Source: an uncultured Nitrososphaerales archaeon
GTDB lineage: Archaea > Thermoproteota > Nitrososphaeria > Nitrososphaerales > Nitrososphaeraceae
NCBI GenBank assembly: GCA_963695855.1
Contig: CAVOHZ010000010.1
Span: forward strand, 800,001 to 864,000
Direction of reading: 5' to 3'
Length of the DNA stretch: 64,000 nt
Shown: positions 22,996 to 41,714 of the stretch, piece after piece
Numbering within the stretch: the stretch's first letter is position 1
Layout: each line of letters starts with the position of its first letter
Notes under the pieces: generated by a model
The model's database searches: none
The model's input: the letters and a program-made list of their open reading frames with translations, nothing else
Told to the model about the DNA's origin: nothing
Position numbers and translations under genes: made by a program

Positions 22996-23119
22996 GTAAT
23001 ACCTTCAGATACTATTAGAAAAAAAATGAATTAATGGAAGGGTTAACTAGTGTAAAGTATCTTTAATTTTTGCAAATACTAATCCTCAAAATAAGAAATT
23101 ATATTATCTTTTATTATTT

Positions 23120-23803: not shown

Positions 23804-24180
23804 ATTATTTAAAAATTAGTTGTAATAATTCCCAATTTGTGTAACTATATCTCAATTAAATTATAGAATTCAAACGGTCAATTTGCTTCTGAATATCTCA
23901 CTGTTCCTGATACATGTAAAATCATTCAATCTTTTATGGTAGATGAAACCCATATTCCAGAGGGAACCTCATTTACCATATATGTTATCCGCTGTTATGA
24001 CACTGTTTCTGATGCAGTAGGGATTCATTTCTTCGTTTTTAATGGATATTCAAAAAAATATACTATTTTCTATTATAGAACAAAATAGATTTTGAAAATT
24101 TTGAAAATGTTCTTCATGTTGCATACTACTACCCGCAATAATAACATGAGTGGCAGAAGATTTATAATAAATATTTTTAG

Positions 24181-24679: not shown

Positions 24680-24695
24680 TTAGCTACTGACTAAA

Positions 24696-24732
24696 CTTTA
24701 CTAATGGTAAAGTATCTTTACTAATAGTAAAG
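24696..24732. promoter_or_regulatory. Two tandem 17-bp palindromes CTTTAC-TAATR-GTAAAG (putative operators)
   Basis: 24696-24712 and 24716-24732, 20-bp period, 17-53 bp upstream of the Zn-ribbon ATG. Confidence 0.6.
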
Positions 24733-24751
24733 TTTGAAGAAAGGCCATACT

Positions 24752-24898
24752 TCATTTCTGTGGTTGTTGTTTGCCTTTATTATCATAGAAGTTTAGCAAC
24801 GTTTCGATAACATCCTCATAAGCCTTCCCAATGCACCCATATTTTGAAAGTCTAACTAGTGTTTCAGATTTTAATCGAACTATAATAGGAAAGTGAGC
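24752..24898 (-). pseudogene. RHH-like gene, copy 1, lacking start codon and promoter
   Basis: Matches 36615-36761 but lacks the first three codons. Confidence 0.65.
24868..24897 (+). repeat. Solitary CRISPR-like repeat ATTTTAATCGAACTATAATAGGAAAGTGAG
   Basis: 29/30 identical to 36731-36760. Confidence 0.55.
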
Positions 24899-24899
24899 G

Positions 24900-24978
24900 A
24901 GAAAAATAAAAAATATAATATTATTTAATATACCTAAAAAATGGTAATTAACTTAATCTCAAACGGTAGCACTTATTC
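24900..24978. repeat. ~80-bp imperfect direct repeat of the sequence following attR (41505-41582)
   Basis: AGAAAA.TAAAAAATATAATATTAT..ATATACCTAAAAATGGTAATTA.CTTAATCTCAAAC..TTATTC shared. Confidence 0.85.
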
Positions 24979-25144
24979 TACTCATCTTTGTCCTTAGGAT
25001 TTTAGCAAATATATTTCCACCAGGTAATTTTTTATAAAATACTTCCAAATCTACCTTAACTTACTAATCTATTTCAAAATAAAAATGAACTAGAAAACTT
25101 AATTAACTAACTTGTCTAATGCCATACGAGTCAGTTAATTCCAG

Positions 25145-28100
25145 ATGTATTTCAATATCAATGGAAATAAAATTAAGAAAATGATGTTATTACTTACTTT
25201 CTTTACATTCCTTTCAATTTCAGTAATTACATTATTTATAATGATAACAATAACATCTAGTCTCTTTGTATATGCAGTAGAAGAGAATAATGTGTTAGAA
25301 GATAAAAAAGGTATACAAAACAACATCGATAATAACAATATCAATACTATTACCAATAACAAAACAAAAGAAATTGAGAAACTGCTTGATACTGCGATAG
25401 AATACTTTCGTTCTTATGATAACAACAAAGCCATAACATATCTCGACAGGGTACTGGCTATAGATGGAAGCAATACAGATGCGCTATTAAACAAAGGACT
25501 AGTACTTTTCTACCTTGGAAAACCACAACAGGCAATAACCTACTTTGACAAGGTGCTTGTTATAGATGGAAACTATACAAGTGCGCTATACAACAAAGGA
25601 CTAGCAATCTCAGAGCTTGGAAACCCAAAGGAGGCAATAACCTACTATGACAAGGTACTGGCTATAGATGGAAACTATACAAAAGCACTAAACAATAAAG
25701 GAGTAGCACTTTCTGACCTTGGAAAACCACAACAGGCAATAACCTACTATGACAAGGTGCTTGTTATAGATGGAAACTATACAGATGCGCTATACAACAA
25801 AGCAGTAGCACTTTCTGACCTTGGAAAACCACAACAGGCAATAACCTACTATGACAAGGTGCTTGTTATAGATGGAAACTATACAGATGCGCTATACAAC
25901 AAAGGAGTAGCACTTTCTGACCTTGGAAAACCACAACAGGCAATAACCTACTATGACAAGGTGCTTGTTATAGATGGAAACTATACAGATGCGCTATACA
26001 ACAAAGCAGTAGCACTTTCTGACCTTGGAAAACCACAACAGGCAATAACCTACTATGACAAGGTGCTTGTTATAGATGGAAACTATACAAGTGCGCTATA
26101 CAACAAAGGACTAGCAATCTCAGAGCTTGGAAACCCAAAGGAGGCAATAACCTACTATGACAAGGTACTGGCTATAGATGGAAACTATACAAAAGCACTA
26201 AACAATAAAGGAGTAGCACTTTCTGACCTTGGAAAACCACAACAGGCAATAACCTACTATGACAAGGTGCTTGTTATAGATGGAAACTATACAGATGCGC
26301 TATACAACAAAGCAGTAGCACTTTCTGACCTTGGAAAACCACAACAGGCAATAACCTACTATGACAAGGTGCTTGCTATAGATGGAAACTATACAGATGC
26401 GCTATACAACAAAGGAGTAGCACTTTCTGACCTTGGAAAACCACAACAGGCAATAACCTACTATGACAAGGTGCTTGTTATAGATGGAAACTATACAGAT
26501 GCGCTATACAACAAAGCAGTAGCACTTTCTGACCTTGGAAACCCAAAGGAGGCAATAACCTACTTTGACAAGGTACTTGCTATAGATGGAAACGATACAG
26601 ATGCGCTATACAACAAAGGGAGTATATTCTATGTCCTTGGACAATACCAAGAGGCAATAACCTACTTTGACAAGGTACTGGCTATTGATGGAAACTATAC
26701 AAAAGCACTAAACAATAAAGGAGTAGTACTTTCTGACCTTGGAAAACCACAACAGGCAATAACCTACTATGACAAGGTGCTTGTTATAGATGGAAACTAT
26801 ACAAAAGCACTAAACAATAAAGGAGTAGCACTTTCTGACCTTGGAAACCCAAAGGAGGCAATAACCTACTTTGACAAGGTACTTGCTATAGATGGAAACG
26901 ATACAGATGCGCTATACAACAAAGGGAGTATATTCTATGTCCTTGGACAATACCAAGAGGCAATAACCTACTTTGACAAGGTACTGGCTATTGATGGAAA
27001 CTATACAAAAGCACTAAACAATAAAGGAGTAGTACTTTCTGACCTTGGAAAACCACAACAGGCAATAACCTACTATGACAAGGTGCTTGTTATAGATGGA
27101 AACTATACAAAAGCACTAAACAATAAAGGACTAGCACTTTCTGACCTTGGACAATACAAGGAGGCGATAGAGTACTATGACAGGGCATTGGCTATTGATG
27201 GAAACGATAAAACGCTACTAAGCAACAAAGGATTTGCACTCTACCATCTTGGAAAATACGAGGAGGCATTAACATATTTTGATAGGGCATTGGTTATAGA
27301 TGCAAACAACACCTATGTACTAAGCAACAAAGGACAGATACTTTCAGACCTTGGAAAACCACAGGAGGCATTAACATATTTTGATAGGGCACTTGCTATA
27401 GACAAGAACTTTACATTGGCGCTAAACAACAAAGGATTTGCACTCTACCATCTTGGAAAATACGAGGAGGCATTAACATATTTTGATAGGGCATTGGTTA
27501 TAGATGCAAACAACACCTATGTACTAAGCAACAAAGGACAGATACTTTCAGACCTTGGAAAACCACAGGAGGCATTAACATATTTTGATAGGGCACTTGC
27601 TATAGACAAGAACTTTACATTGGCGCTAAACAACAAAGGATTTGCACTCTACCATCTTGGAAAATACGAGGAGGCATTAACATATTTTGATAGGGCATTG
27701 GTTATAGATGCAAACAACACCTATGTACTAAGCAACAAAGGACAGATACTTTCAGACCTTGGAAAACCACAGGAGGCATTAACATATTTTGATAGGGCAC
27801 TGGCTATTTATGCAAACAACACCTATGTACTAAACAACAAAGCACTTGCACTCTACTCCCTTGGAAAATACGAGGAGTCAATTGTCTCCCTAGATAAAGC
27901 ACTAGTTATTTCTCCAAATGATCTTGTAATAATATCTAACAAAGGACTATTATTGGTTGAACTCGAGGATACCGATCAGGCACTTAAACTGGTTGACTCA
28001 ATTTTAGAAGAAAATCCAGATGATAAACGTCTATTATGTGTGTTTAAAAAAGCATATGAAAAGTCAGGTAATGAAGAATCTGCTGAATATTATGAAGAAA

Positions 28101-28177
28101 AAATTAATGCGCTAGATCCTTCCTATGAATGTAAATTGATAGAAACTCTTGGTAGTGAAAAAGAAGCATTTAACTGA
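25145..28177 (+). CDS. Secreted TPR-repeat protein (~25 TPRs, near-identical 102-bp units)
   Basis: Hydrophobic N-terminus ending VYA; 34-aa repeats ALYNKGVALSDLGKPQQAITYYDKVLVIDGNYTD. Confidence 0.92.
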   Translation: MYFNINGNKIKKMMLLLTFFTFLSISVITLFIMITITSSLFVYAVEENNVLEDKKGIQNNIDNNNINTITNNKTKEIEKLLDTAIEYFRSYDNNKAITYLDRVLAIDGSNTDALLNKGLVLFYLGKPQQAITYFDKVLVIDGNYTSALYNKGLAISELGNPKEAITYYDKVLAIDGNYTKALNNKGVALSDLGKPQQAITYYDKVLVIDGNYTDALYNKAVALSDLGKPQQAITYYDKVLVIDGNYTDALYNKGVALSDLGKPQQAITYYDKVLVIDGNYTDALYNKAVALSDLGKPQQAITYYDKVLVIDGNYTSALYNKGLAISELGNPKEAITYYDKVLAIDGNYTKALNNKGVALSDLGKPQQAITYYDKVLVIDGNYTDALYNKAVALSDLGKPQQAITYYDKVLAIDGNYTDALYNKGVALSDLGKPQQAITYYDKVLVIDGNYTDALYNKAVALSDLGNPKEAITYFDKVLAIDGNDTDALYNKGSIFYVLGQYQEAITYFDKVLAIDGNYTKALNNKGVVLSDLGKPQQAITYYDKVLVIDGNYTKALNNKGVALSDLGNPKEAITYFDKVLAIDGNDTDALYNKGSIFYVLGQYQEAITYFDKVLAIDGNYTKALNNKGVVLSDLGKPQQAITYYDKVLVIDGNYTKALNNKGLALSDLGQYKEAIEYYDRALAIDGNDKTLLSNKGFALYHLGKYEEALTYFDRALVIDANNTYVLSNKGQILSDLGKPQEALTYFDRALAIDKNFTLALNNKGFALYHLGKYEEALTYFDRALVIDANNTYVLSNKGQILSDLGKPQEALTYFDRALAIDKNFTLALNNKGFALYHLGKYEEALTYFDRALVIDANNTYVLSNKGQILSDLGKPQEALTYFDRALAIYANNTYVLNNKALALYSLGKYEESIVSLDKALVISPNDLVIISNKGLLLVELEDTDQALKLVDSILEENPDDKRLLCVFKKAYEKSGNEESAEYYEEKINALDPSYECKLIETLGSEKEAFN

Positions 28178-28255
28178 ATAAATATCATCCTAAGTTTGTA
28201 AAAATAAAAGTAAACTTATTTAAAAAGCAAAATTACTATTAGGTTAAGCGGTTCT

Positions 28256-29515
28256 TTGGTAAAATTACAAAATGTTTTGTATCTGGTCTTATTTTTAATA
28301 ATTCCCTTTATTACTTTTTTCCAAGATGATGATGCTATCGCTTTTTCTCCTACATATGAAAGACAGGAAATCATAGATCTTAATGATGATTGGAAATTTT
28401 GGTCTTTTGATAAGGATATTAAAACAGAGACAATATATGGAAAAAACAATGAACGAATACAGATTCCCGTTGGAAATGAAGATACTTGTAAACTCGAAAT
28501 AGGAAATCCCCCCGAAATCAGATCTGTTAGTTACATGAGTAATGGTGAGAGGTTAGATTCAACCATCTGGTTATCATCAAAACTTAATGAAATAGACCTG
28601 GTTGAAAATAAAATAGACATAGAAAATTACGAAAAAGATGCATTCAAGCCTTTATGGAAAAAAGTAAAATATACTGTTGCTATAGACATTAATTCTGTAT
28701 TTAATCAGGGAACAGATTACAGGATAGAATTTTTATATGATAAGATAAATTCTACTGTTCCAAAATGGACACAAGTTATTTATGAACTCTCTGCTTTCGG
28801 AGGAGAAAAAATAATTTCAACAAAAGTATATGATAAATTTCCATATATCAATAAAAATTTTATCGAGTTTTCAATTGATTTAAACAAAATTAGTAATCCA
28901 ACCAATTACAAACTATTGTTCTATGTTACAAATAACTATGTCAAAAATGGTACATATTGTAGAACTATAGATTATACAAATTGGGTTTTGTCTCCTCCAC
29001 CAAATTTCAATTTAGTCGTTTTTGACAATCCCATTTCAATGAATCCTGGTGAAGAGAAGGATGTCCTTGTAAACGTAGTTGGTAAAACTGGATTACAAGC
29101 AGAAGCAGAACTAACAATAAACAAAACTGATCCTGATGTTAGCCTAAATTTTCTTTCAAAAAACGTTACAATAACTTCGATAAACAATGGTAGTTCTCTT
29201 TTGCATATCAATGTGTCCAAGTCAAAATTTTTTGAAAAACCTAAACAAATAGTATTTCCAATATTAGCAAATATTTCATTTACACCTACCATAAAAGAAC
29301 AGGGCAGTGATATATTTTATAATAATAAAACTACTTTTTTAACTGAAACGATTGATTTAACGCTAAACATAGAAAGATCCCTCACATTTTTTGAAGAAGT
29401 AGAGGAAAAAATCAGTTTTCTCAGACCAATAGAGGAAACATGGGGTATATTAGCACTGATAGGTGCCGCGCTTTTATCTTTGATATATTTAATAAAGAAA
29501 AAAAAGAAAAAGTAG
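28256..29515 (+). CDS. Surface protein with signal peptide and C-terminal TM anchor
   Basis: N-terminal hydrophobic segment, beta-rich body, WGILALIGAALLSLIYLIKKKKKK tail. Confidence 0.7.
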   Translation: MVKLQNVLYLVLFLIIPFITFFQDDDAIAFSPTYERQEIIDLNDDWKFWSFDKDIKTETIYGKNNERIQIPVGNEDTCKLEIGNPPEIRSVSYMSNGERLDSTIWLSSKLNEIDLVENKIDIENYEKDAFKPLWKKVKYTVAIDINSVFNQGTDYRIEFLYDKINSTVPKWTQVIYELSAFGGEKIISTKVYDKFPYINKNFIEFSIDLNKISNPTNYKLLFYVTNNYVKNGTYCRTIDYTNWVLSPPPNFNLVVFDNPISMNPGEEKDVLVNVVGKTGLQAEAELTINKTDPDVSLNFLSKNVTITSINNGSSLLHINVSKSKFFEKPKQIVFPILANISFTPTIKEQGSDIFYNNKTTFLTETIDLTLNIERSLTFFEEVEEKISFLRPIEETWGILALIGAALLSLIYLIKKKKKK

Positions 29516-29768
29516 AAACAATTTAAGACTTGAGTCCCATCAAAAATAATGTAAGATAGAAAAAGACTTTCATAATTCAGTGACATGTTAATATTTTGAT
29601 GTTTTAGAATTATAGAGATTATCTAATAAGATCTCGAGTATAATAGATTTATAAGATAATTAAGTCATATAAAAACCCGCACAACAAATATGTTATATCA
29701 TAAAAACTAAGTTAAAATATATTGTATTTTCGAATTGTCTAATAACATCTACGTCAGTTTAGTTCGAT

Positions 29769-30200
29769 ATGTATTTCAATAGTAATAGATATGAAATTAA
29801 TAACAAGTTGTTATTTTTTCGTTTTTTACATTCTTTCCAATTTCATTAATTACACTTACAGTAATACTGATGACATCCAGTCCCTTTGTTTATGCACAAG
29901 AAGAGAATAACATCTTAGATAAAAAAAGGTATACAAAACATCATCGATAACAATACTAATAACAATACAAATCTCTATAACAAAACACTAGAAATTAACA
30001 AATTGCGTGATATTGCTAAAGAATATTACATTTCTGGTGATTATCCAAAAACACTAACTTACTATGAAAGAGTACTTGCTATAGATGCAAGTGATACAGG
30101 TGCACTAAACGACAAAGGAAATGCACTCTATGCCCTTGGAAACCCAAAGGAGGAATTTGAAGATTACTGGTTATATCTGTGTCATACCTCCGTCAACTGA
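29769..30200 (+). pseudogene. Frameshifted, truncated paralog of the TPR protein
   Basis: MYFN start, TSSPFVYAQEENNIL, and one TPR (YYERVLAIDASDTGALNDKGNALYALGNPKE) match the 25145 gene; several frameshifts. Confidence 0.8.
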
Positions 30201-30345
30201 CAGGTCTATACCAGTGATATAGCTGCTTTCGTCAGATGCAAGGAATGACACTACTTTTGCTACTTCAACAGGACTGCCCATCCTCCCCATTGGCACTGCG
30301 GTTATTATATTCTTCTTGAATTGCTCGACTTGCACCATTGAGTTA
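30171..30345 (-). pseudogene. C-terminal fragment of a short-chain dehydrogenase/reductase
   Basis: [37 protein letters not shown]; Rossmann N-terminus absent. Confidence 0.85.
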
Positions 30346-30723
30346 CCGCTACTCCAAAAGGGTTTTTTCTGGGAAGCCTTGCTGTCTTTTAGTAGGAGAA
30401 AAATTACTCTTGGTATAGATTGATACATAAACATAATGACTGTTATCTTTAAAAGTCTCAATTTTCTATCCGATAAACTCTTTCTTGTAATTTATATGAT
30501 AACTTAATTACACAAATAAATATACTGGGATTTTAACTGGTTCTACTATTGAATGTCAATGATATTTATAAAAATGATGTGAATAGATATTTATAAAAAC
30601 ATTCTTTATTTCTAAATGAGAATATTCTTTTATTTGCTTGCTTGAGATTGATATATTTTTCTAATGACTTATTATTATCACAGGACGAGAACTTAAATAG
30701 AATGGAATTATATAATCTTTACA

Positions 30724-30906
30724 ATGTTATCTGTTTCATGTAAAGATGTTGGAGTGGACTGTGATTTTAGGGGAACTGGCGAAACAGAAGAAGAATTAAT
30801 GAATAGTTTGGTTGATCATGTAATTAAGGACCATGACTACACTCGTGAACATGTGATGAATCCTGAAATACAGGAAAAGATAAAAACCAAAATTAAACAA
30901 TCTTAA
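30724..30906 (+). CDS. DUF1059 small metal-binding protein
   Basis: CKDVGVDCDF..GETEEELM..H..DH. Confidence 0.88.
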   Translation: MLSVSCKDVGVDCDFRGTGETEEELMNSLVDHVIKDHDYTREHVMNPEIQEKIKTKIKQS

Positions 30907-31052
30907 AAATATCGGACTATGCTGTCAAAAGTTAATTTTCAATTACTAAACCACTCTTTATTTATTTTTTAGGATTCTTTCATGCTATCTGTTTTTTTAG
31001 TTGTTGATCCTGAAGTTAATTTGATCAATATCATTGGTTTAAAAGAGAATAA

Positions 31053-33230
31053 TTGAGGACTACTCTATACTTCTTTTTAGGAGTAATTATTACAATAATC
31101 ATAGGAAATTCTATTATTATTTTTGCTGACTCAGACAGTAAAATAATCTATTCAAATTGGATATTGATAACAAATTCTCTTATTGCTGCAGGACTTTCTG
31201 CAATGATTTTCATTAAGAATAAAGATAGTAATGAAGAAGATAAAACTAATATTCTTCTAACACTAGGTCTTGTTTTCTGGTTTATAGCAAATATAATCTG
31301 GGCATATTATGAATTAGTACTTGATATTGTATCCCCGGTACCTTCTTTAGCAGATTTATTCTTGTTATCTGCATATGGATTTTTAATATATAGATTACTA
31401 TGTATATATAGAAAACTTGGTCACATTACAAATAAAAAAATTCTGCTTTTACTAATCTCTGGTTCAGGTTTATTTTTGATATATATATTAAACTTGACTC
31501 TTGATCTTACGGAATTATCAAATTTCAGAGGTCTTATGCTTTTTGTTGTTACTATAGCATATCCTACATTAAATTCCATTCTAACTGTTCTTGCATTGCT
31601 GATCCTCCTTAGGATAAAGAATGAAAAACATCGCTTTATTCCTTGGATCTGTGAATTGGTTGGATTTTTAGCAATAGTTGTAGGAGATAGTTGGTTTGCA
31701 ATTATTGTTCTAACAGCATTTGTTGAACAGTTATGGATGTCTGCATTATTATTGTCTGCACATTATCTGTTAATTGCAGGTGGCCTTATATGGTATCTTA
31801 GATATTATATCAAATGGCAGTCAAAGGACCTCATTTACAAAATTATAACAAATACGAGGAGAAGAAAAAAAAATAAAACTTTCAAAAAGATTCTGCTTAG
31901 TTCTACTATACTAATATCTTTTCTAATATTTGCTAGTGTTTATTACACAAATATTTATAGCGGTGACCAAGGTAACGAATTCTTTATTAAAAAAAGTTCT
32001 TCTTATCCTCAACTCTTCTCATCAATATATAATGAGGAAAGTAGCAAGGACTTTGTTGTTGGCGCCATTTTACCATTTACTGGTTCCTTTTCCTCTCTTG
32101 GTAAATCTATCAAAGTAGCATTGGAAAAAGCTGAATATGATGTAAACAAACATTTTGAAAAAATGAATTCTTCATCACACTTTAATCTATTAATGGCTAA
32201 TTCAAAGACAAGTCCAGAAGATAGCCTGGCAGCAATAAAAAAATTACATGAATATGGTGCAAATATTATTGTAGGACCTGCAATCGGGAGTACAGTTTAT
32301 GCTGCCAAAGAATATGCAGATGCAAATAATATCATCCTTATTAGTTACTCCAGTACTTCCTCATCACTTTCTATTGAAGGAGACAATCTTTTTCGATTGG
32401 TTCCTGACGATACAGACCAAGGAAGAATAGTTGCAGAAAGAATGATCAGTGACGGTATAAAAGTTATTGTTCCTATCTGGAGAGGCGGTTTATATTCAAA
32501 TGATCTCTATAAATCTACTAAATCTTCTTTTGAACAGCTAGGAGGAAAAGTAGAAGAAGGTATTAATTATAAACCCTATACAGGAAAATTTGCCACTAGT
32601 TTACATAGGATAAATTTCCTAATGTGGAATCAAGAATTAGAAAAATTAAATGCAATAGTCTCTGATGCAGTAAAAAAATATGGTGCTAAATCTGTAGGTG
32701 TATATGTAATATCTTTTGACGAGATAACACCTATTTTAATTCAATCAACCATTTATGAAAACTTAGGAAAAGTAAGATGGTATGGAAGTGATAAAATAGC
32801 ACAAAATCATCAGATAACAAAGAATGTTGATTCAGCATTATTTGCAATGAAAACAAATTTTTCTAATCCTTTATATTCAATAGATAGTGAGTCGAAGAAA
32901 TATCATGATCTCAAAGAAGTATTAGAAAAACAATTACATGAAGTAAGTTCAATAACATATCCTGCACTAGCTTATGATTCTTATTGGATAGCGGCACTAA
33001 GCCTTGATAAAAATAATACTACTTTTAACAATAGTAATAATGGAAATTTAACCAAATCATTTGAAGAGATTATTCGTGAAACTGCAGATTCATTTGATGA
33101 GGGAATATCAGGAAAAATAAAACTTAACAAAGCAGGAGATCGCATTGGTGGAAATTATGATTTTTGGATTGTTGGTAAAGATAATGACACTCAAAACTAT
33201 GAATGGGAGAAAGAACATAAATTAGAATAG
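31053..33230 (+). CDS. Multi-TM protein fused to a type-1 (LivJ-like) solute-binding domain
   Basis: ~8-9 TM helices including PVPSLADLFLL; then VGAILPFTG, IIVGPA, LISYSST, FRLVPDD, AYDS, GISGKIKLN.AGDR. Confidence 0.8.
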   Translation: MRTTLYFFLGVIITIIIGNSIIIFADSDSKIIYSNWILITNSLIAAGLSAMIFIKNKDSNEEDKTNILLTLGLVFWFIANIIWAYYELVLDIVSPVPSLADLFLLSAYGFLIYRLLCIYRKLGHITNKKILLLLISGSGLFLIYILNLTLDLTELSNFRGLMLFVVTIAYPTLNSILTVLALLILLRIKNEKHRFIPWICELVGFLAIVVGDSWFAIIVLTAFVEQLWMSALLLSAHYLLIAGGLIWYLRYYIKWQSKDLIYKIITNTRRRKKNKTFKKILLSSTILISFLIFASVYYTNIYSGDQGNEFFIKKSSSYPQLFSSIYNEESSKDFVVGAILPFTGSFSSLGKSIKVALEKAEYDVNKHFEKMNSSSHFNLLMANSKTSPEDSLAAIKKLHEYGANIIVGPAIGSTVYAAKEYADANNIILISYSSTSSSLSIEGDNLFRLVPDDTDQGRIVAERMISDGIKVIVPIWRGGLYSNDLYKSTKSSFEQLGGKVEEGINYKPYTGKFATSLHRINFLMWNQELEKLNAIVSDAVKKYGAKSVGVYVISFDEITPILIQSTIYENLGKVRWYGSDKIAQNHQITKNVDSALFAMKTNFSNPLYSIDSESKKYHDLKEVLEKQLHEVSSITYPALAYDSYWIAALSLDKNNTTFNNSNNGNLTKSFEEIIRETADSFDEGISGKIKLNKAGDRIGGNYDFWIVGKDNDTQNYEWEKEHKLE

Positions 33231-33355
33231 CAAGCCTATTTAAAAATGGTAATATTTACATAAGTGATAGCGGAAATGTTCATTTTCGAGAAAATTATGT
33301 GTATAGTTAAATTATATAATTTACTTAAATATTTGTAGTAACTATAAATAAATAA

Positions 33356-34615
33356 TTGAAGGAACGTATGAAAAAATTCGGCATATTAAGTATTTGCTGT
33401 ATCGTTTTTTTATCAACTTTTTTATATATGACTATAAATAAAAATATATTTTATCATTTTCAAGAATTTGGTAACATTCCACATTTGATTACAACTTATT
33501 ATAGTTATTTAAATGATATATTACCAGTGTCAAAGGTTAGTTTTTCAGATAATCTATCTGTTTCAGCATCACATGATATAAGAAAGCTGATTAGCGTAGG
33601 TGGGATAAATGGCGATAATAAAACATCTAAACCATTTGAAGAAATTCAATATCCCAATAATATAAACATCACTCATAAAGACATTCAAAAATATTTTTTC
33701 TCTAAAAAGAGAAGTGAAATACATTCACCAGAAAATAATAGCCATACTTTAGAATTTGAAAATAAATCTATAGCACTTGTTAAACCTACTTTTACTGATG
33801 CAGCTTATAACAATTCATTCTATAATTTTTATAGACTCTATGCCAGTGTTCCTATTAATACAAATATCACTACTAATCTCAATTTGCTTTATAGTAAACT
33901 CTCTAATAACCAAGAAGGCGCAATTTCAAATGTTTTTGCTATGCTTAATATGATAAAAAATTTAAAATGGATAACAAATAACTCCAATATTACTGTAATA
34001 ATTGACCAAGATGTTGATTCTAACTCTATTTTCAATAAAGATGGATCAAATAAATACAATATTTTAATTCTTGGACATCAAGAATATGTCACCCAACAAG
34101 AATATGATAATTTGAAAGAATTTGTCTCTAATGGTGGAACTATGATCCTCTTGGATGGCAATGCATTATATGTTCAGGTAAAATACGATAACAGCACAAA
34201 TCAAATATCTCTAGTTAAAGGTCACGATTGGGCTTTCAACGGAAAGTCTGCATGGAAAAGTGTAGACGAAAGATGGAAAAATGAAACCTCTCAATGGGTA
34301 GGTAGTAATTATCTTTGTAATGTTTGCCATATATCCTATTTGCATAATCCATTTCAATACATACATCATGAAGAAAATTATATTACAAATCCAAATGATA
34401 TTATCCTCTTAAAATATCGATTTACTGATCCCGTGGATAATTTATCTAAAAATTTAGTAGTAGCAACATATGAATTGAATTATAAAAAAGGAAAAGTTAT
34501 TGCTTTAGGATTATACTCGGATGATATAATAAATAATGGAAATTTTGATAGATTTTTTGATAGTTTGTTAATTAAAGACGTATTCAAAAATAATTTGAGC
34601 CTATCCCAAAAATAG
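33356..34615 (+). CDS. Secreted protein with N,N-dimethylformamidase beta-subunit-like (GATase1-like) domain
   Basis: PTFTDAAY, ILGHQEYVTQQEYDNL..FV.NGG..LDGNA; C-terminus ends inside the IS terminal repeat. Confidence 0.7.
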   Translation: MKERMKKFGILSICCIVFLSTFLYMTINKNIFYHFQEFGNIPHLITTYYSYLNDILPVSKVSFSDNLSVSASHDIRKLISVGGINGDNKTSKPFEEIQYPNNINITHKDIQKYFFSKKRSEIHSPENNSHTLEFENKSIALVKPTFTDAAYNNSFYNFYRLYASVPINTNITTNLNLLYSKLSNNQEGAISNVFAMLNMIKNLKWITNNSNITVIIDQDVDSNSIFNKDGSNKYNILILGHQEYVTQQEYDNLKEFVSNGGTMILLDGNALYVQVKYDNSTNQISLVKGHDWAFNGKSAWKSVDERWKNETSQWVGSNYLCNVCHISYLHNPFQYIHHEENYITNPNDIILLKYRFTDPVDNLSKNLVVATYELNYKKGKVIALGLYSDDIINNGNFDRFFDSLLIKDVFKNNLSLSQK

Positions 34616-35504
34616 ATAGGAATATAGCTCCTTTGTTTCTTACCATATCTGATAATGTTTGAGTAAGAGTAAAAAATATGTTAGAACAATTACACGTATT
34701 CCAGATGACCTTTGGTATGAAATAAAAAATATTTTACCAGATGAGAAACAGGAAAATACAATAGGCAGACCAATTATTCCATATAGAAAAGTATTTGATG
34801 GTATCATGTTTATCCTGAGAACTGGATGTCAGTGGAAAATGTTACCCAAAGAATATGGTTCTGGTTCAACATACCACAGAAGATTTCAGGAATGGAGAGA
34901 ATCACGTATATTTGATAAATTATGGAGTCTATTACTAAAATTATACGATAACAAGAGAGGAATAAAATGGAACTGGCAGTCACTTGACAGCATATGAATA
35001 AAATCACCTTTAGGGGGGCGATGACAGGTCATAATCCTACTGATAGAAGCAAATTAGGAACCAAAAGACATATTTTAACAGATAAAGAAGGCATTCCATT
35101 ATCTGCGATTATAACATCTGCAAATACTCATGATCTTACCGTTGCAATTGATACAGTTGATAGCATGGTTCTCAAAAGATCATCATATAAACTAAATGAT
35201 GGAAAGAAGAAAAAGAAGACTAAAAAGCAGAATCTATGTCTTGATAAAGCATATCATTCCAAAGATGTAGAACAAGAAATTATCAAGAGAGGATACATTC
35301 CACATATACGACACAGAAGAGAAGAACAAATATTTCGTAGAAAACATCCTGCAAGAAGATGGGTTGTAGAACGAACAAATTCATGGCATAACAGATTCAG
35401 GAAATTATTTACACGGTATGAAAAGAAAGAGGAAAACTATCTGGGTCTTGTACAATTGGCTAATAGCATAATTATCTACAGGAGGATAATTTTGGGATAG
35501 GCTC
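34597..35504 (+). mobile_element. IS5-family insertion sequence (908 bp)
   Basis: Perfect 15-bp TIRs GAGCCTATCCCAAAA / TTTTGGGATAGGCTC enclosing transposase; no clean target duplication (TTT | TAA). Confidence 0.92.
34659..35500 (+). pseudogene. IS5 transposase, two-frame gene with premature TGA
   Basis: OrfA LRTGCQWKMLPKEYG..RRFQEW..DS; OrfB GTKRH, DKAY, RWVVERTNSW..RFR; TGA at 34995 precedes a G6 run at 35013-35018. Confidence 0.85.
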
Positions 35505-35563
35505 TAAGTATCAAATATCAATATTCAACATTTTAATATTATATTATTATAAAAAGATACAAT

Positions 35564-36043
35564 ATGAAAATATTGAATGCTGGACCCGGTTTCAGTCAAC
35601 CAATGACAGAAGATGAAACTATAGCATTTCTTACTTCTGGAAGAAGAAATATCTACATTGCAAGTTTAGATGAAAAGAAAGAACCAAATATTCATCCTGT
35701 CTGGTATTATTTTGATTCATCAAATCAAAAATTCTACATTGAAACATCTAAATATTCAAAGAAAAAAAAGAATTTAGAAAATAATAAAATAGTATATTTT
35801 TGTGTAGATGAACCAAATATTCCATATAAAGGGGTAAGAGGAAAAGCAAAGGTAGACATTATTCAAGATATTGATAGTATTGTTCCAATTTGTGAAAGGA
35901 ATATGAAGAAATATCTTGGAAGTCTAGAACATCCAATGGCAAAAGAATTGGTTAATCTTGCTAAAAGAGGTGAATCAGTAGCAATAGAAATCTCTCCATT
36001 GTATTTTTCTACTTGGGATGATGGTAAAGTAAAATTTCAATAA
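35564..36043 (+). CDS. Pyridoxamine 5'-phosphate oxidase-like (split-barrel, probably F420/FMN-binding) protein
   Basis: PNIHPVWY, SKK..NL..N..V.FCVD..YKGVRGK. Confidence 0.85.
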   Translation: MKILNAGPGFSQPMTEDETIAFLTSGRRNIYIASLDEKKEPNIHPVWYYFDSSNQKFYIETSKYSKKKKNLENNKIVYFCVDEPNIPYKGVRGKAKVDIIQDIDSIVPICERNMKKYLGSLEHPMAKELVNLAKRGESVAIEISPLYFSTWDDGKVKFQ

Positions 36044-36100
36044 ATATGATGCATTTATAAAAAATGGCGACAATTTTGTCCCTGTTTCCACTTTAGAATA

Positions 36101-36537
36101 TATTATGTTTCTCTCTTTCATTTACAATATCTAACATCGCCTGTCTGCCTCTCTTTTTTTGATTTATAGTATTCCTCGGTTTCATCAACCCTCATGTTAA
36201 CAATATCCACGAAGCGGACACTATCATGTTCAAATTGATGTATTATATGAGTTAATTCCTCGATGGTTGGACGTGGCTCTGTATATAAAAATCGAGTACA
36301 GATATCAGTATTTACGAGATATCTATTTCCAAACATTTCACCTATCTTAATCATTCCATCCAGTCTGCGTACACGATAACGAAGGGCTTTTTCATGCCTT
36401 GACATTCTAGTAGAATCCCATTTTGGATGTTTGCATTTTGCACAGTATCGGGGTTTGGGTTTCTCCCTGCGGCTTATCCACTTCTAGCCACATCTCTCGC
36501 ATTCGTATTCTACTGCTTCTATTATTCTTTGAGGCAT
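36101..36537 (-). pseudogene. Zn-ribbon protein, copy 2 (nonsense, 2-bp deletion, 3' truncated)
   Basis: ATG at 36537; TAC>TAG at 36484-36486; one CT unit lost near 36150. Confidence 0.7.
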
Positions 36538-36553
36538 TTTGCTACTAACTAAA

Positions 36554-36595
36554 CTTTACTAATGGTGAAGTTAAGTATCTTTACTAATAGTAAAG
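36554..36595. promoter_or_regulatory. Tandem palindromic operators, copy 2 (5-bp insertion, one mismatch)
   Basis: CTTTACTAATGGTGAAG (36554-36570) and CTTTACTAATAGTAAAG (36579-36595). Confidence 0.55.
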
Positions 36596-36614
36596 TTTGA
36601 AGAAAGGCCATACT

Positions 36615-36770
36615 TCATTTCTGTGGTTGTTGTTTGCCTTTATTATCATAGAAGTTTAGCAACGTTTCGATAACATCCTCATAACCCTTCCCAATGCACC
36701 CATATTTTGAAAGTCTAACTAGTGTTTCAGATTTTAATCGAACTACAATAGGAAAGTGAGCCTCTCCCAT
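36615..36770 (-). CDS. 51-aa ribbon-helix-helix-like protein (not in ORF track)
   Basis: MGEAHFPIVVRLKSETLVRLSKYGCIGKGYEDVIETLLNFYDNKGKQQPQK; strand-helix-G-helix pattern of archaeal RHH/antitoxin-like proteins. Confidence 0.7.
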   Translation of the reverse strand: MGEAHFPIVVRLKSETLVRLSKYGCIGKGYEDVIETLLNFYDNKGKQQPQK

Positions 36771-36823
36771 GCTAGCAAAAATACCTGTAAACGTCTTTAA
36801 TCGAACTATTATAGGATTGAAAA
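36731..36823 (+). CRISPR. CRISPR-like mini-array: two 30-nt repeats and one 33-nt spacer; no cas genes in window
   Basis: ATTTTAATCGAACTACAATAGGAAAGTGAG / CCTCTCCCATGCTAGCAAAAATACCTGTAAACG / TCTTTAATCGAACTATTATAGGATTGAAAA; second repeat ends in the canonical ATTGAAA(N) handle. Confidence 0.5.
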
Positions 36824-36990
36824 AGAAAGTGACGGGATTCTATTTTTTTAAGATCCAAACGATGAACGTGCTTAATTATTGTTACAAAAAAATCAAAAAG
36901 AGAAAATTTTTTTTAAAAACAAATAATAGATGGGAAATATAATCTTCGAGTAATGAATCCAAACAATAGGATTCGAGGCGAGCATATTGT

Positions 36991-37004
36991 TCCCGCTCAA
37001 GGCT
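36991..37004 (+). repeat. Short att-like remnant of the tRNA-Thr 3' end
   Basis: TCCCGCTCAAGGCT vs tRNA TCCCGCTCAGGGCT (13/14), GC-rich in an AT-rich context. Confidence 0.55.
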
Positions 37005-37130
37005 CGTCCTTTAAGCATAAATTTTAGTATTTTTGAAAAATCAGCCTTGCGTACTTAAGGGTATCGACACAACTTCATATCAGAATTCGTATATATCATC
37101 ATGTTGCATTAATAAGGTTGAAATTAAGTC

Positions 37131-37481
37131 ATGGGGAAACAAAAAAATAAATCTGTTAATACCAAGGCAAAGATTTCTGATAAAGGTATCAGTACAAATA
37201 AAGACAATAGACCGACTGGAGTAACAACAAGAAGGAATAGAATTTTATCAAGTCAGAAAATTGTAGGAAAAGATATGGTGAAGCGACAGCCTACAGGAAG
37301 TAGTAGGAAATTATGCATGGGGGTAACTATGGATAAAGAATTCCTTGACCGATACTTAGATAAACATGCAGCTGAATTGAAAATGACAAGGAGCTGGCTT
37401 GCATATTCAATACTTAGAATGTACTATGGTTTACCAGTAGAACAAAAGATAAAGAAACCATTTTGGTCTTTTAAAAAATAA
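37131..37481 (+). CDS. Basic protein with C-terminal RHH-like domain
   Basis: MGVTMDKEFLDRYLDKHAAELKMTRSWLAYSILRMY fits a CopG-type RHH pattern. Confidence 0.6.
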   Translation: MGKQKNKSVNTKAKISDKGISTNKDNRPTGVTTRRNRILSSQKIVGKDMVKRQPTGSSRKLCMGVTMDKEFLDRYLDKHAAELKMTRSWLAYSILRMYYGLPVEQKIKKPFWSFKK

Positions 37482-38093
37482 TTTATCTACAACAACGAAT
37501 TTACTGTAAGACTCATTAAAAAAATTCAGAAAAGAAGATTAAAAAGAATATTATAAAGAATATTATGAATAACAGATAAAATAACCTGGAGAAAAAACGA
37601 TTCAACATTAGTTATTTAAATATCAAATCGGTATTTAATTATATTTTTACATTTAGTAAATACTTCAATATTATAAATCATGTTATCATTTCCATTCATA
37701 AATCTTAAATAATTTTTCTTGTTACCAAAACATTAGAATTTATTATTGCAACGATATCGGTATTACATCTCACGCGTCCATTATATTTAGGATTTTATTT
37801 ATGGTATAATACATTATCTAATCAATTTTAGTTATGTACATGAGAAATTGGAAAAGAGACAATAAATTTTTAGTAAAAATAGGTATATTATTTGGTTATG
37901 ATTTTTCTGAAGTAGATGCGGTAAGTAAGAATCATGAATCTTAGAAATGAAATATGGCGTCATGCTGTAAAGCTATCAATAAATATGAAATCAATGCAAT
38001 TAATGAGTAAATAAATGGGTAGAGCATCACAAGTATTTGGATATCTTTTTGGTTTCATAATCCTATTAACAGGACTTATTAATTGTAACAGCA

Positions 38094-38444
38094 TTGGCTC
38101 AGCCTTTGCTGTTTTTAGGTGGTATTCCTATAATTGGTTTATTAGTAACAATCTTTGGATTTGCCATTATGTATCTAGGACATAGGTCAAGACCTACAAA
38201 AGAAAAGGAGATGTTGAAGATGCAGGATGAGGAGTATTTTAGAGAACAAAAGTTGAAGGAGGAATTGGAAAAGAGAGAGACAAAGGAGATGGAAAAAGCG
38301 GAAAAAGGAAAGAGAAAAAGAATAGACATGAAATTAAATTTTTTAAATTTGTATCGCAATAACATATTATACTTTCATCTAATTTGCATTGTGTGTTATA
38401 CCTCATTATCTGAAAACTTAATGCAAAATAAAATCATAAAATAA
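38094..38444 (+). CDS. Hypothetical membrane protein, possibly degenerate
   Basis: TM segment followed by charged coiled coil; further hydrophobic coding-like sequence upstream from ~38015. Confidence 0.4.
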   Translation: MAQPLLFLGGIPIIGLLVTIFGFAIMYLGHRSRPTKEKEMLKMQDEEYFREQKLKEELEKRETKEMEKAEKGKRKRIDMKLNFLNLYRNNILYFHLICIVCYTSLSENLMQNKIIK

Positions 38445-38816
38445 AAGATATAAAATAATTTTATTACTTTTGCAGATAGAATTTCTTACGAAGCACAATG
38501 TATCTTTTAAACAATTCGATCTAATTTTTGTATTGTAATAAATTCTATTCAATAACATTAATACACTTATTTGCATAGTTGAAAAATTCCGATATTTTAG
38601 AAGTATGCATAAACTACTTACTGATTTAAAAATAAAAATGAACAGAATGAATTGTTGACAAAATTATATAGGATAACTATTCCATAATACAATTTTGAGC
38701 AAAGTCACGAATATTTCTTATATTTTTTTGCAAATAATATGTAGAATGTTTTTCTGTAATTAGATTACCTCTTCATGTGACGTTATACTAAAATAAGTAA
38801 ATTCCTTATCAATAAT

Positions 38817-39077
38817 ATGACAAATAGAAGCAGAACAGAAATAGTTTGTAATATACTTGATGCCGCAAATGGAGGGGCAACCAAGACAAAAATTATGTAC
38901 ATAGCTTTTGTAAGTTATATTCAATTAAAAGAGTATCTTTCTATTTTGATAGAATACAAGCTAATAGAATATATTGATGGGACTCGCACATTCAAGACCA
39001 CAGAAAAGGGATTAAACTTTCTTAAAATGCATAACGAAATGGGAGAATTATTACAAAATACCATCGAAAATAACTAA
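38817..39077 (+). CDS. Winged-helix regulator (DUF4364/HTH_45 type)
   Basis: RSRTEIV..IL..GATKTKIMY.A..QLKEYL..TTEKG..FL. Confidence 0.9.
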   Translation: MTNRSRTEIVCNILDAANGGATKTKIMYIAFVSYIQLKEYLSILIEYKLIEYIDGTRTFKTTEKGLNFLKMHNEMGELLQNTIENN

Positions 39078-39455
39078 TTAATTTTATAATCTAAGGTATC
39101 GTAACAACTGAAGAATCTTGAATAGTTGGTGACTAATCAGTAACGAACTATTACACAGATTATATATCATTTTTTAATATGATATTATAGTTTCACACTC
39201 ATTGATTTGTTGTGATTAAATATGGGATCATAGTTGATGGTGATTCACTTCAGGACCGACTTTTTATTTTGCAGCGCTATAAGGGAATCAATAATGTCTC
39301 AAAAACATTATTTCAACCACCTTTGACCTTTTTTATTATGACAACAATTTGTAATACAATAAATAATATTTAAATATTATCTTATTTATTACTAAAACAT
39401 TAGTTTCTTATTTTTGCACCGCTATAGGTATTACTGCCGATGGTTATGTGCCTGT

Positions 39456-39647
39456 TCATAGGTCTGTAGATCTATTTTTTATAGGATCTATTACCATTGG
39501 TGTCTTTCCAAATTCACTTGGTAATTCTATCGATGTTGCATTATCTGGAATTACATCATATTTTAATATCTGTTTATCTACATCATAAACAGGATAATAC
39601 AATTCAACTATCACAATATCTTCTATAATCTGCTGTAATACTCTCAT
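39456..39647 (-). pseudogene. Probable C-terminal fragment of a secreted thaumarchaeal protein
   Basis: IVIVEL..PVYD..LKYDV.PDNATSIELPSEFG..MVID; no signal peptide. Confidence 0.35.
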
Positions 39648-39819
39648 GTTTATTCAGACTATCCTGATTTACATTTAATTGAATCTTAGATAATTAAATT
39701 TTCTAAAAACATACATGTATTACACATTTCCATGAAAAAGAAAAAATAGACATAGTTAAAAATACATTCATGTTAGTGGTAACTAACAAAAAATCCCAAA
39801 TTCGATATTCTTTGATTTT

Positions 39820-40989
39820 TTAATTAAATTTAACAATTTCAATCCAATTTGGATCTTTACCCGACTCATACCGATCCAAGAGTTTTAATTCACCAGTTTC
39901 TGGATTGATCGCATGTACCGATACATGATCTGATTTTTGTCCTGCTACAATCACAAAATTGCCCTTAGGATCAATGTTAATACCACGTGGCATCTTTTCA
40001 GTATCGTAAGTTCCAACGTAAGTCAAATTACCTAAGTGACGGTCAACAGCAAATGCGCTAATTGTGTTGGTAGCTCTTTCACTTACGTATAACCATTTAC
40101 CATCAGGTGTTATGTGAATATCTGCAACTTTAATAATGGTAGATTCCCCATCAGCCATACCTTGGGCACCATATCCAGCTACAGGAGATGATGGTTCAAG
40201 GTTAATGTTAGGAGGGATTACTGAAATTCTCTGGATTTCCGTTAAAATCCCTGTCTTGTTATTAATCTCATAAGAATAAACCGTACCATCCATTTCATTT
40301 GATACATAAACAAACTTATTATTTGGTGAAAAATCAAAATGGCGTGGTCCAGAACCATCTTTAGTATATACAACATCAGGATCATTTGGTGTAAGAGCCC
40401 CAGTGGATTCATTAAACAAATATTGTTTTATCTGATCATTTCCTAACTGAGGTACATACACAAATCGGTTGGATGCATCAACTAAAATTGAATGGGGTTT
40501 TGGACCCGTGGGAATCACCTGTACAGGTTCTGCTTGGACGAAACCTTTGAGGTCTATTGGGTTTACCGCAATTTTCGCACCGGTATAGGATGCTGATAAA
40601 AGAAAACGTCCGGTTTGATCTACTGAGATATATGCCATGTTATCTGGTAATGGTTCTTTAGAAAGATGAGTTAGGTTACCACTCTCAGAATTAATTGAAT
40701 AAGATATTACTGAAAAAGGTTCTGAACGAACAGACGCATAAAGGAACCGATGATCCGGACTCAATGTCATATGCATTACGTTTGGCCCGGCAGGTACCTT
40801 TTCCACCAATTTCATATCACCTGTTTCAGGGTTTAACTTCATGATTGCAATATTTCCATCACCACCATTAGAAACATACACAAACGTTCTATCTGAATTA
40901 GCATAAACAAACGTTCTATCTGAATTAGTCTGATTTATTACCATAAATAAAATCGCAATCACTAGCGCACCCACAATAATTCTAAGCAC
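39820..40989 (-). CDS. Secreted lactonase-family 7-bladed beta-propeller (Pgl-like)
   Basis: GSGPRHFDF, ADIHITPDGKWLYVSER, PRG.NIDP.G, PNWIEI; signal peptide; 27-bp internal duplication (NSDRTFVY x2). Confidence 0.88.
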   Translation of the reverse strand: MLRIIVGALVIAILFMVINQTNSDRTFVYANSDRTFVYVSNGGDGNIAIMKLNPETGDMKLVEKVPAGPNVMHMTLSPDHRFLYASVRSEPFSVISYSINSESGNLTHLSKEPLPDNMAYISVDQTGRFLLSASYTGAKIAVNPIDLKGFVQAEPVQVIPTGPKPHSILVDASNRFVYVPQLGNDQIKQYLFNESTGALTPNDPDVVYTKDGSGPRHFDFSPNNKFVYVSNEMDGTVYSYEINNKTGILTEIQRISVIPPNINLEPSSPVAGYGAQGMADGESTIIKVADIHITPDGKWLYVSERATNTISAFAVDRHLGNLTYVGTYDTEKMPRGINIDPKGNFVIVAGQKSDHVSVHAINPETGELKLLDRYESGKDPNWIEIVKFN

Positions 40990-41196
40990 GAAACTATGCA
41001 GTGTTTTTTTGTTATTATTAATTTATCTATATGTTATTGTCAGTAGATATTATAGCTTGAACCAACTTTTTGGAATCACTTGAAATAAAGATTAATCAAA
41101 AAAGATCCATGTAAATAGAAAACATTTTGTATTCTATTCTAATAGCCATTTCGATATCTATAATAACAATGACTAAAATCCTTAAATATTTGAAAA

Positions 41197-41514
41197 ATGC
41201 AACCAGTTGACAAAAATGGTAGGAAATCAAATTATTCATTTCTAACAAAATCAGAATATGAATTACTCAATGGAAAAGGAGAACAATCTATTTCAAAAAA
41301 CTTTAGATATAAAATGCTATCAAATAATAAAAAGGAGGTTCGCATATTCTTGGAAAATGTATTACCACTACTTGTAGAAAATAACTTGATTTCCTTTGGT
41401 TATGACAGTTACAATTTTGATCCCAATATTGTAGGAAATATTGAAAATGATAATGACTTTAAGCAAAAGGTCGCTCGATCGAATCTCGCTCAAGTCTGTA
41501 ATACAGAAAACTAA
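41197..41514 (+). pseudogene. ORF reading through attR; probable N-terminal fragment of a split (SSV1-type) integrase
   Basis: Its last ~15 codons (KQKVARSNLAQVCNT) are encoded by the degenerate tRNA 3' half; no catalytic R-H-R-Y domain. Confidence 0.5.
41460..41504 (+). repeat. attR: degenerate copy of the tRNA-Thr 3' half plus 7 downstream nt
   Basis: TAAGCAAAAGGTCGCTCGATCGAATCTCGCTCAAGTCTGTAATAC vs 22958-23002, 39/45 identical, ungapped. Confidence 0.85.
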
Positions 41515-41576
41515 AAAATATAATATTATCTGATATACCTAAAAATGGTAATTAGCTTAATCTCAAACAGTGACAG

Positions 41577-41714
41577 TTATTCACCTTCATATTTCTCTTC
41601 TTCCACTTCATCTTCTTCTTCCTGTTTATCATCCTCTATGTGATGAACTTCATCCTTAGTTTCTTCTCTTTCAGTTTGTTCACCTTCTTCGTCATTTTCA
41701 GATTTATTACTCAT
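41577..41714 (-). CDS. 45-aa highly acidic small protein (not in ORF track)
   Basis: MSNKSENDEEGEQTEREETKDEVHHIEDDKQEEEDEVEEEKYEGE; TTTATAA TATA-like box upstream. Confidence 0.5.
   Translation of the reverse strand: MSNKSENDEEGEQTEREETKDEVHHIEDDKQEEEDEVEEEKYEGE

Follow-up and report, generated by a model that had tools for sequence, protein, structure and literature searches.

The window analysed here is a stretch of 64,000 nucleotides (nt) from an uncultured archaeon of the family Nitrososphaeraceae (assembly GCA_963695855.1, contig CAVOHZ010000010.1, positions 800,001 to 864,000). Within it lie two related 30-nt direct repeats of the kind found in CRISPR arrays, and between them begins, on the opposite strand, a small open reading frame (ORF) with likeness to ribbon-helix-helix (RHH) proteins. 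On the plus strand, the first repeat (R1, 36731-36760) and the second (R2, 36794-36823) enclose a single spacer of 33 nt (36761-36793). A repeat search of the window recovered the pair as a direct repeat of 19/21 identity (36733-36753 and 36796-36816), spaced 63 nt from start to start. The 21-nt core occurs three times in the 64 kb, with its third copy at 24870-24890, against 0.02 occurrences expected from 100 shuffles. The minus-strand ORF (36615-36770) comprises 51 amino acids (aa). Its ATG (36770-36768) lies in the spacer, which supplies residues 1-3; R1 encodes residues 4-14, including the segment HFPIVVRLK, and residues from about 15 to 51 are RHH-like. By reading of the sequence, an ATTAAAG inside R2, 25-31 nt upstream of the ATG, is a TATA-like candidate only. 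A first-pass annotation of this DNA had described the two repeats and this overlapping geometry, and both are present as described. It had further proposed a switch, in which the Cas6/Cascade of the host would process a CRISPR RNA (crRNA)-like transcript directed against the 5′ end of the RHH mRNA, tying the RHH gene and a neighboring Zn-ribbon gene to the CRISPR state of the host. The CRISPR-sense transcribed strand would be the plus strand of the window, antisense to the ORF.

R2 is a near-intact repeat of a type I-B family. It agrees with the canonical repeat of this genome at 27/30 positions, the mismatches being at positions 1, 2, and 30, and its 3′ end is the ATTGAAAA motif. In a whole-genome pattern search, the same core appeared in regularly spaced clusters on four other contigs (C2, C4, C5, and C6). 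Four-repeat mini-arrays of the canonical repeat, with its ATTGAAA end, lie at C2:123025-123252, C5:27434-27660, and C6:111338-111565, and a copy of the C2 array reaches the end of contig C4, which ends within the array. The repeat (at most 3 mismatches in 29) was also found in 51 of the 151 sampled genomes of the same taxonomic family, one of them unpublished (G077), and in 14 of the 18 genera; the largest arrays among these genomes hold 91, 66, and 65 copies. In one of the relatives (G139), an array of at least 40 repeats is placed directly downstream of a cas operon and on the same strand. This operon, in the order cas6, a 501-aa gene, cas7 (DevR), a 194-aa gene, cas3 (HD and helicase), cas4, and cas1, has the type I-B gene order. 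Since the repeats do resemble real CRISPR repeats, both in the arrays of their own genome and in those of Nitrososphaeraceae relatives, the CRISPR nature that the first-pass annotation had assigned to them stands.

R1, on the other hand, is degenerate, matching the canonical repeat at 22/30 positions (8 mismatches). Its first 23 nt are well conserved, and the divergence is concentrated in the last 7-8 nt, the part that would give the 5′ handle of a crRNA; within its last 8 nt, R1 shares the base of the canonical repeat at no more than 3-4 of 8 positions. The third copy in the window (24868-24897, plus strand), which forms the end of a second copy of the surrounding cassette, is degenerate as well (23/30, 7 mismatches) and likewise carries most of its mismatches within the last 7-8 nt. 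In type I-B systems, the 8-nt 5′ handle of a crRNA derives from the 3′ end of the upstream repeat. Thus, with no usable 5′ handle in R1, the sole spacer would be unable to yield a canonical crRNA. Furthermore, the DNA upstream of R1 is a remnant of RHH coding sequence, with no leader there. The spacing is also somewhat different, as the window has two repeats in a unit of 63 nt with a 33-nt spacer, and the mini-arrays elsewhere in the genome have units of 65-66 nt with spacers of 35-36 nt.

The proposed switch requires the Cas machinery of the host, and we found none of it. The host genome (3.55 Mb in 11 contigs, 99.87% complete) gave no match, over its whole length, to Cas1 (PF01867), Cas2 (PF09827), Cas6 (PF01881 and PF10040), Cas7/DevR (PF01905), or RAMP (PF03787). 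Three of these six Pfam families do recognize the Cas proteins of G139. A tblastn search of the host genome with seven I-B proteins of G139 returned only two weak helicase alignments, both for Cas3 (25% and 22% identity). There are no cas genes near the locus either, which the first-pass annotation had rightly called cas-less. All arrays of this host, therefore, appear to be orphaned. In the genus, the repeat is present in 11 of the 21 sampled genomes and Cas6 in 1 of 21, which suggests that most such repeats may travel on, or be left by, mobile elements. Across the family, 39 of the 51 repeat-bearing genomes had no PF01881 match, although many of these assemblies are incomplete. A Cas6-bearing genome of the genus (G048) has the same repeat adjoining its cas6, and it also carries the closest homologue of the RHH gene.

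The ORF itself is chimeric. Judged from its sequence, the part from about residue 15 to 51 is the C-terminal two thirds of a DUF7557/VapB-like RHH gene. A translated search of 61 genomes of the family found relatives of the ORF in 9, and every alignment started at residue 7-10 or later. Native members of this RHH family begin with MVKTIKIS, and their genes read MVKTIKISDEIHARLSKHG... or MSTQLTKLIKVKDD... at this point. Of the aligned members, 8/8 matched DUF7557 (best E 1.5e-10) and 7/8 matched VAPB_antitox (PF02697), and a profile of the family matched the RHH N-domain of SeqA with an E-value of 0.0098. The ORF of the window is the weakest DUF7557 match (E 0.015, 15.2 bits vs the 25-bit Pfam cut-off). 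At the DNA level, the homologous part of the ORF (36615-36717, minus strand) is 88% identical over 103 nt to the closest native member, locus L010 in G048. When the two were anchored on the codon for Arg19, 28/30 positions agreed downstream and 7/12 in the four codons before it; the successive blocks inside R1 agreed at the level of chance only (2/12, 2/12, and 3/12 positions). R1 ends 14 nt before the Arg19 codon. As identity falls at the edge of R1, the homology breakpoint coincides with the outer edge of R1 within about 2 nt. Because the frame runs from the repeat into the remnant of an RHH gene, the ORF is a fusion and not a pure translation of repeat sequence.

This junction was not met anywhere else in the genomes compared. 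At the other homologue loci, the repeat (at most 7 mismatches in 30) was present in 0 of 13, and in the other genomes of the genus, the RHH-R1 junction was present in 0 of 24. A 25-mer across the RHH/R1 border had no exact match in metagenome and genome contigs, a word-indexed protein search with the 51-aa ORF gave no candidate, and PHROGs returned nothing for the ORF and, for its neighbors, only rows with E>0.04. The repeat-spacer-repeat arrangement over the RHH gene, whose conservation among RHH homologues the first-pass annotation had proposed to test, is absent from all 13 loci and all 24 genomes. A recombination at a GATTA shared by the native gene and the repeat was considered and rejected, as the frames there, by reading of the sequence, differ by one base, and such an event fails to explain the in-frame junction.

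Along with the first strand, the native 5′ region of the gene has been lost. At the native loci L010, L011, and L020, the first ATG is preceded, at a distance of about 30 nt, by a conserved TATA box with which an inverted repeat (TATAC..GTATA) overlaps, and this block is a likely autoregulatory operator of the native family. It is not present in the window. The same three loci adjoin tyrosine-integrase-like and zinc-finger genes, none of which occurs in the window. The supposed target of the switch is a fusion from which the N-terminus and promoter of the native gene are missing. These comparisons also bear on a simpler proposal, that R1 and R2 are plain autoregulatory operators of the RHH protein, set six helical turns apart, whose CRISPR likeness is incidental. 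The spacing of 63 bp does equal six turns of 10.5 bp, and RHH proteins commonly bind direct repeats. However, the likeness of R2 to the genome's own arrays (27/30) and the occurrence of the repeat in 51/151 genomes are not what an incidental resemblance would give. Moreover, in the native members, the inverted repeat that is conserved over the TATA box is another one, and R1/R2-like sequence is present at 0/13 loci. Better operator candidates than R1 and R2 are two tandem near-palindromic units of 17-19 bp (36551-36598) between the RHH stop and the Zn-ribbon start. We, therefore, give the operator proposal very little chance of being correct. Both cassette copies retain these tandem units (CTTTACTAAT.GTAAAG type), the second at 24696-24733, and they are a likely operator or promoter element of the Zn-ribbon gene.

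The neighboring gene and the second copy of the cassette both show decay. The Zn-ribbon gene (36118-36537, minus strand) has an in-frame TAG at codon 18 (plus-strand positions 36484-36486), and so it is, as read from this assembly, a probable pseudogene; the Zn-ribbon arm of the proposed switch is interrupted accordingly. Its paralogue at 24371-24679 has codon 18 intact and a frameshift later. Both belong to a duplicated segment (36101-36761) that contains the Zn-ribbon gene, the palindromes, the truncated RHH gene, and R1, and that is 95.8% identical to 24240-24898. The identity ends 1 nt past R1. In the second copy, the RHH frame is without an ATG, GTG, or TTG start, and the spacer and R2 are absent; the repeat at 24868-24897 is directly followed by DNA 85% identical to window positions 41505-41597. 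One of the two copies (24240-24898) ends at the repeat, and the other (36101-36761) continues into the spacer and R2. A repeat on the other flank of the 660-bp cassette was sought and not found, there being nothing repeat-like (at most 8 mismatches in 30) near 36101 or 24240. The ratio of non-synonymous to synonymous substitution rates (dN/dS) of the RHH remnant against L010 was 0.89 (27 codons; 2 synonymous and 7 non-synonymous changes), compared with 0.10 for the native pair L011-L020.

The spacer, which the first-pass annotation had suggested comparing with thaumarchaeal viruses and elements, found no counterpart in any of the sequences searched. It has no second match in its own genome. 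Its 24-nt core had no exact match in viral, metagenome, and genome contigs, where exact scans miss diverged protospacers. A blastn search with 36725-36865 gave chance rows only (E 0.4, 15 records of enterobacterial phages) and nothing among plasmids. The spacers of the other mini-arrays, searched within their own genome only, had no other match there. The exact 29-nt repeat occurred in 0 contigs of IMG/VR. When two positions of the 21-nt core were left free, one IMG/VR contig was retrieved; the hit lies in coding DNA, with no ATTGAAA end and no second copy, and was taken as chance. As for the 36 nt after R2, which had been put forward along with the spacer, a match does exist: positions 36835-36855, which start 12 nt after R2, are identical over 21 nt to C4:41993-42013, inside a gene for a Cdc48-like ATPase. 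Its reading as a guide did not hold, since the 11 nt next to the handle are unmatched, and the match is probably due to chance.

RNA data touch the region at one place only. Logan contigs from the RNA libraries X17 and X19 cover 36281-36527, within the Zn-ribbon region, with 6 differences each, and may come from the paralogue or a relative. None of the Logan RNA contigs covers R1, the spacer, and R2, and as such contigs show neither strand nor absence, they are uninformative on expression. At position 36484, the contigs of runs X1, X2, X17, and X19 read G and not C, which turns the TAG into a Tyr codon. Of these, the X2 contig is the only one to extend across R1 and the spacer and over most of R2.

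Taken together, the observations leave the antisense switch largely refuted, with no machinery found, no conserved architecture, and the target operon already broken. In its favor, the geometry holds (ATG in the spacer, R1 coding, and R2 over the putative promoter), and R2 does belong to a real I-B repeat family. Against these stand the failure to find Cas6, Cas7, Cas1, Cas2, and RAMP in the genome, the degenerate 5′-handle part of R1, an RHH ORF that is a fusion devoid of its native promoter, and the stop in the Zn-ribbon gene. Besides, the arrangement is missing from every homologue locus and every other genus genome compared, and the second copy of the cassette has no spacer, R2, or start codon. 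A working switch of this kind is, in our view, extremely improbable.

The locus lies in mobile-element-like DNA, as the first-pass annotation had also supposed. A tRNA-Thr(GGU) gene (22922-22995, plus strand) marks the left boundary of an integrated-element region, and the right one is marked, as an attachment (att) site, by 45 nt (41460-41504, plus strand) in which the 3′ part of that gene is partially repeated in direct orientation (86.7% identity). Close to R2 is a conserved element end of about 90 nt (36913-37005, plus strand), at whose att-like tip (36985-37000) 15 nt reproduce the 3′ end of tRNA-Thr(GGU) with 14/15 identity. The element-end sequence is found again next to the mini-arrays of C2 and C6, and three further genomes of the genus have it as well; at the C2 element end the same position holds the 3′ end of a different tRNA-Thr (CGU). 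At C4:134571-134876 (L003), an array with its flank follows an intact tRNA-Thr(CGU); at C2:123025-123458 (L001), that array with its flank comes after no more than the final 16 nt of tRNA-Thr(CGU), joined to the conserved element end. L001 and L003 may show an att site that the assembly contains in both its occupied and its empty state, or else elements in tandem. We read the region 22996-41504 as a set of old, tandem, rearranged integrated elements. No integrase was found in the region or elsewhere in the window; the C5 mini-array has a fragment of one at a distance of about 400 nt. A relative (G112) shares both the element end and the downstream gene and has no repeat within 1.5 kb, which indicates that the mini-array is not a fixed part of the element.

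This setting raises the question of whether the repeats are functional cargo, with R2, alone or with R1, acting as an RNA anti-CRISPR decoy (Racr-like), or the mini-array being used in trans by the I-B apparatus of whatever Cas-bearing hosts the element enters, and lying idle in this one. The high identity of R2 to the canonical repeat (27/30) and its intact ATTGAAA end are consistent with such a role, as are the four other mini-arrays of the same repeat near tRNA-Thr-derived att-like sequences, the C5 one near the integrase fragment. In the same genus, G048 has cas6 with the same repeat adjoining it as well as the closest RHH homologue, and stand-alone arrays on integrated Thaumarchaeota elements have been documented (PMC6563490). 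On the other hand, R1 has no usable 5′ handle, the DNA upstream of it is RHH coding sequence and not a leader, and the region has no integrase but does have an insertion sequence (IS) and pseudogenes. The mini-array spacers are unmatched in their own genome, and that of the window is also unmatched in the viral, metagenome, genome, phage, and plasmid sequences searched. Furthermore, the element end in G112 lacks the repeat within 1.5 kb, and the exact 29-nt repeat is in none of the IMG/VR contigs. Thus, we consider a cargo function unlikely, though it has a better claim than the switch or the operators.

The explanation we favor, and think probable, is that R1, the spacer, and R2 are a vestigial mini-array of the type I-B family, brought by a mobile element, together with an accidental fusion ORF, and not a designed switch. 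In this scheme, an integrative mobile element would have brought a small array of the type I-B family to the tRNA-Thr(GGU) gene. As the host has no detectable cas genes, the array would have been orphaned and left to decay, R2 remaining almost intact and R1 losing the 3′ end that is the source of the 5′ handle. A rearrangement, most simply a deletion, may then have joined the outer edge of R1 to about codon 15 of the DUF7557/VapB-like RHH gene of the element, and would have stripped that gene of its own promoter, operator, and first strand. By chance, the reverse complement of the repeat would have been open in the RHH frame, and the spacer would have offered an in-frame ATG, giving an ORF of 51 aa with an N-terminal strand that the repeat encodes. 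By reading of the sequence, 2 of the 3 frames on the reverse complement of the repeat are open. Directly observed are which repeat this is, that no cas genes could be found, that the breakpoint falls at the repeat edge, that the native 5′ region is gone, and that the neighboring gene and the second copy are in decay. We infer that the junction arose by deletion and that, in this host, no selected function belongs to either the RNA or the fusion protein.

Several observations weigh against this explanation. R2 is far better conserved than R1, possibly beyond what neutral decay would leave in DNA of 31% GC. The same repeat forms mini-arrays in four further places of this genome and in 11/21 sampled genomes of the genus, with Cas6 in 1/21, and this recurrence could mean upkeep for use in other hosts. 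The frame of the ORF is open for 23 more codons upstream of its ATG, through R2 (where it reads FNPIIVRLK), with no stop between. The V-R-L encoded by the repeat aligns on the strand positions of I-K-I in the family (alignment A1). In addition, an AlphaFold2 monomer model of the ORF product is extended over residues 1-13, with helices at 14-23 and 30-44 and a mean pLDDT (predicted local distance difference test) score of 77; with its extended N-terminus and helices, the predicted fusion protein could still fold as an RHH. A Foldseek comparison of this model with the PDB gave no match at E<=0.001. The dN/dS of 0.89 rests on only 9 substitutions. The 394-nt contig of X2, from a soil metagenome, has the same R1-spacer-R2 junction together with an intact Zn-ribbon Tyr codon, and so a less decayed version of the locus seems to exist, though possibly from the source sample itself. 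Finally, the assembly consists of 11 contigs, one of which ends within an array, and cas genes could lie on unassembled DNA.

In a different account, a family of tRNA-Thr-integrating elements of this Cas-poor genus would keep I-B repeats, as short arrays or single copies, near the att end as portable decoys or in-trans guides, ready for any entry into a Cas-bearing host. At this locus, the repeat would also have been exapted as a protein-coding, working DNA-binding strand, and R2 as a TATA-like promoter, for a regulator gene deprived of its native 5′ end. If this were true, a CRISPR repeat would have been turned into protein-coding sequence. We regard this account as highly unlikely, if less so than the switch and the operator proposals. 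The vestigial mini-array with an accidental fusion, in our opinion, accounts better for the locus as a whole.

Other features of the window and of the genome may be mentioned here. In the same integrated region is a transposase of the IS4/IS5 type (34659-35500), in two overlapping frames (DUF4096, then DDE_Tnp_1), and a relative of it is found immediately upstream of the C2 mini-array. The apparent cargo of the element includes a 1010-aa protein (25145-28177) that consists almost entirely of TPR repeats, 24 in number; at the DNA level, a 102-nt unit is repeated 23.8 times in tandem (83% identity). Further along the window, tandem repeats occupy 49266-49518 and 49905-50260, with units of 27 nt (9.4 copies, 100% identity), 48 nt (4.9 copies, 98%), and 30 nt (5 copies, 99%). 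The genome as a whole has at least 7 CRISPR-like repeat clusters, several of which adjoin tRNA-derived att sites. Larger arrays of a different 30-nt repeat, with 12 and 13 repeats, lie at C8:550856-551614 and C10:1185517-1186347, and there is also a 4-copy array of a 37-nt repeat. At C8:260250-260540 and C10:1667000-1667400, irregular clusters with whole and half copies of a third repeat stand directly at tRNA-like 3′ ends, and the two clusters are mirror images of one another. In the C2 array, spacer 1 is the same as spacer 3. In the C5 and C6 arrays (C5:27290-27463, L004; C6:111190-111367, L005), the last repeat breaks off after 25 nt. Other DNA, of about 125 nt, comes next, in which the conserved element end and its tRNA-like tip are found, and after it come the final 12 nt of the repeat. 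A 6-7-nt duplication (TAGGATT/AGGATT) flanks the insert, and the arrangement looks like an insertion into a CRISPR repeat.

The analysis matters mainly as a correction, in that a CRISPR-coupled antisense switch over a repressor gene is not upheld. It also shows that a near-complete genome without detectable cas genes can still carry CRISPR-like clusters in such number. Moreover, the locus illustrates a trap for annotation, as open frames through CRISPR repeats can join the remnants of genes and so mimic plausible small regulators.

Among known systems, the closest are the stand-alone CRISPR arrays that integrated elements of Thaumarchaeota carry, with repeats like those of the host type I-B, as described by Krupovic et al. 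(2019, PMC6563490). Like those arrays, the one in the window has no adjacent cas genes, lies in apparently integrated, tRNA-associated DNA of the same archaeal group, and has repeats of the I-B type of related hosts. In contrast, the arrays described there have 69-96 spacers and seem to be active, where ours has two repeats, one of them degenerate, and one spacer, in a host in which we found no cas genes. The mini-CRISPR arrays borne by viruses (Medvedeva et al. 2019, PMC6858448) resemble it in their shortness, with 1-3 spacers on a mobile element and repeats of the host type. According to that study, however, their spacers target related viruses, whereas the window spacer has no match and its element is decayed and without an integrase. 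With the solitary repeats of RNA anti-CRISPRs, or Racrs (PMC10651486), the locus shares a near-intact single repeat (R2) on apparently mobile DNA outside a cas locus; unlike there, the host here has no detected Cas proteins to inhibit, and R2 is flanked by a decayed partner repeat, as in the remnant of an array.

The CreA of CreTA (Cheng et al. 2021, PMC8501985; also PMC9458426) comes near in form, with two divergent, degenerate repeats around one spacer-like segment. As reported there, both repeats of CreA retain the nucleotides for its 5′ (8-nt) and 3′ (22-nt) handles, and the RNA acts together with a resident type I Cascade (PMC8501985). At our locus, by contrast, the 5′-handle part of R1 has been lost, and genes for Cascade (Cas6 and Cas7) were not found. 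In CreTA, the spacer is in part complementary to the promoter of a small toxin gene beside it; the spacer of the window overlaps the start of the fusion ORF itself. Erroneous ORFs through CRISPR repeats have been reported (PMC7673337), and here, too, an open frame crosses CRISPR repeats; unlike those cases, it enters the remnant of a real gene of a known protein family. Residues from about 15 to 51 align with the DUF7557/VapB-like (PF02697) RHH proteins, but the start and the first strand come from outside that family. In light of these comparisons, the locus is probably a small, decayed member of the stand-alone arrays borne by mobile elements, with an unusual and probably accidental gene fusion.

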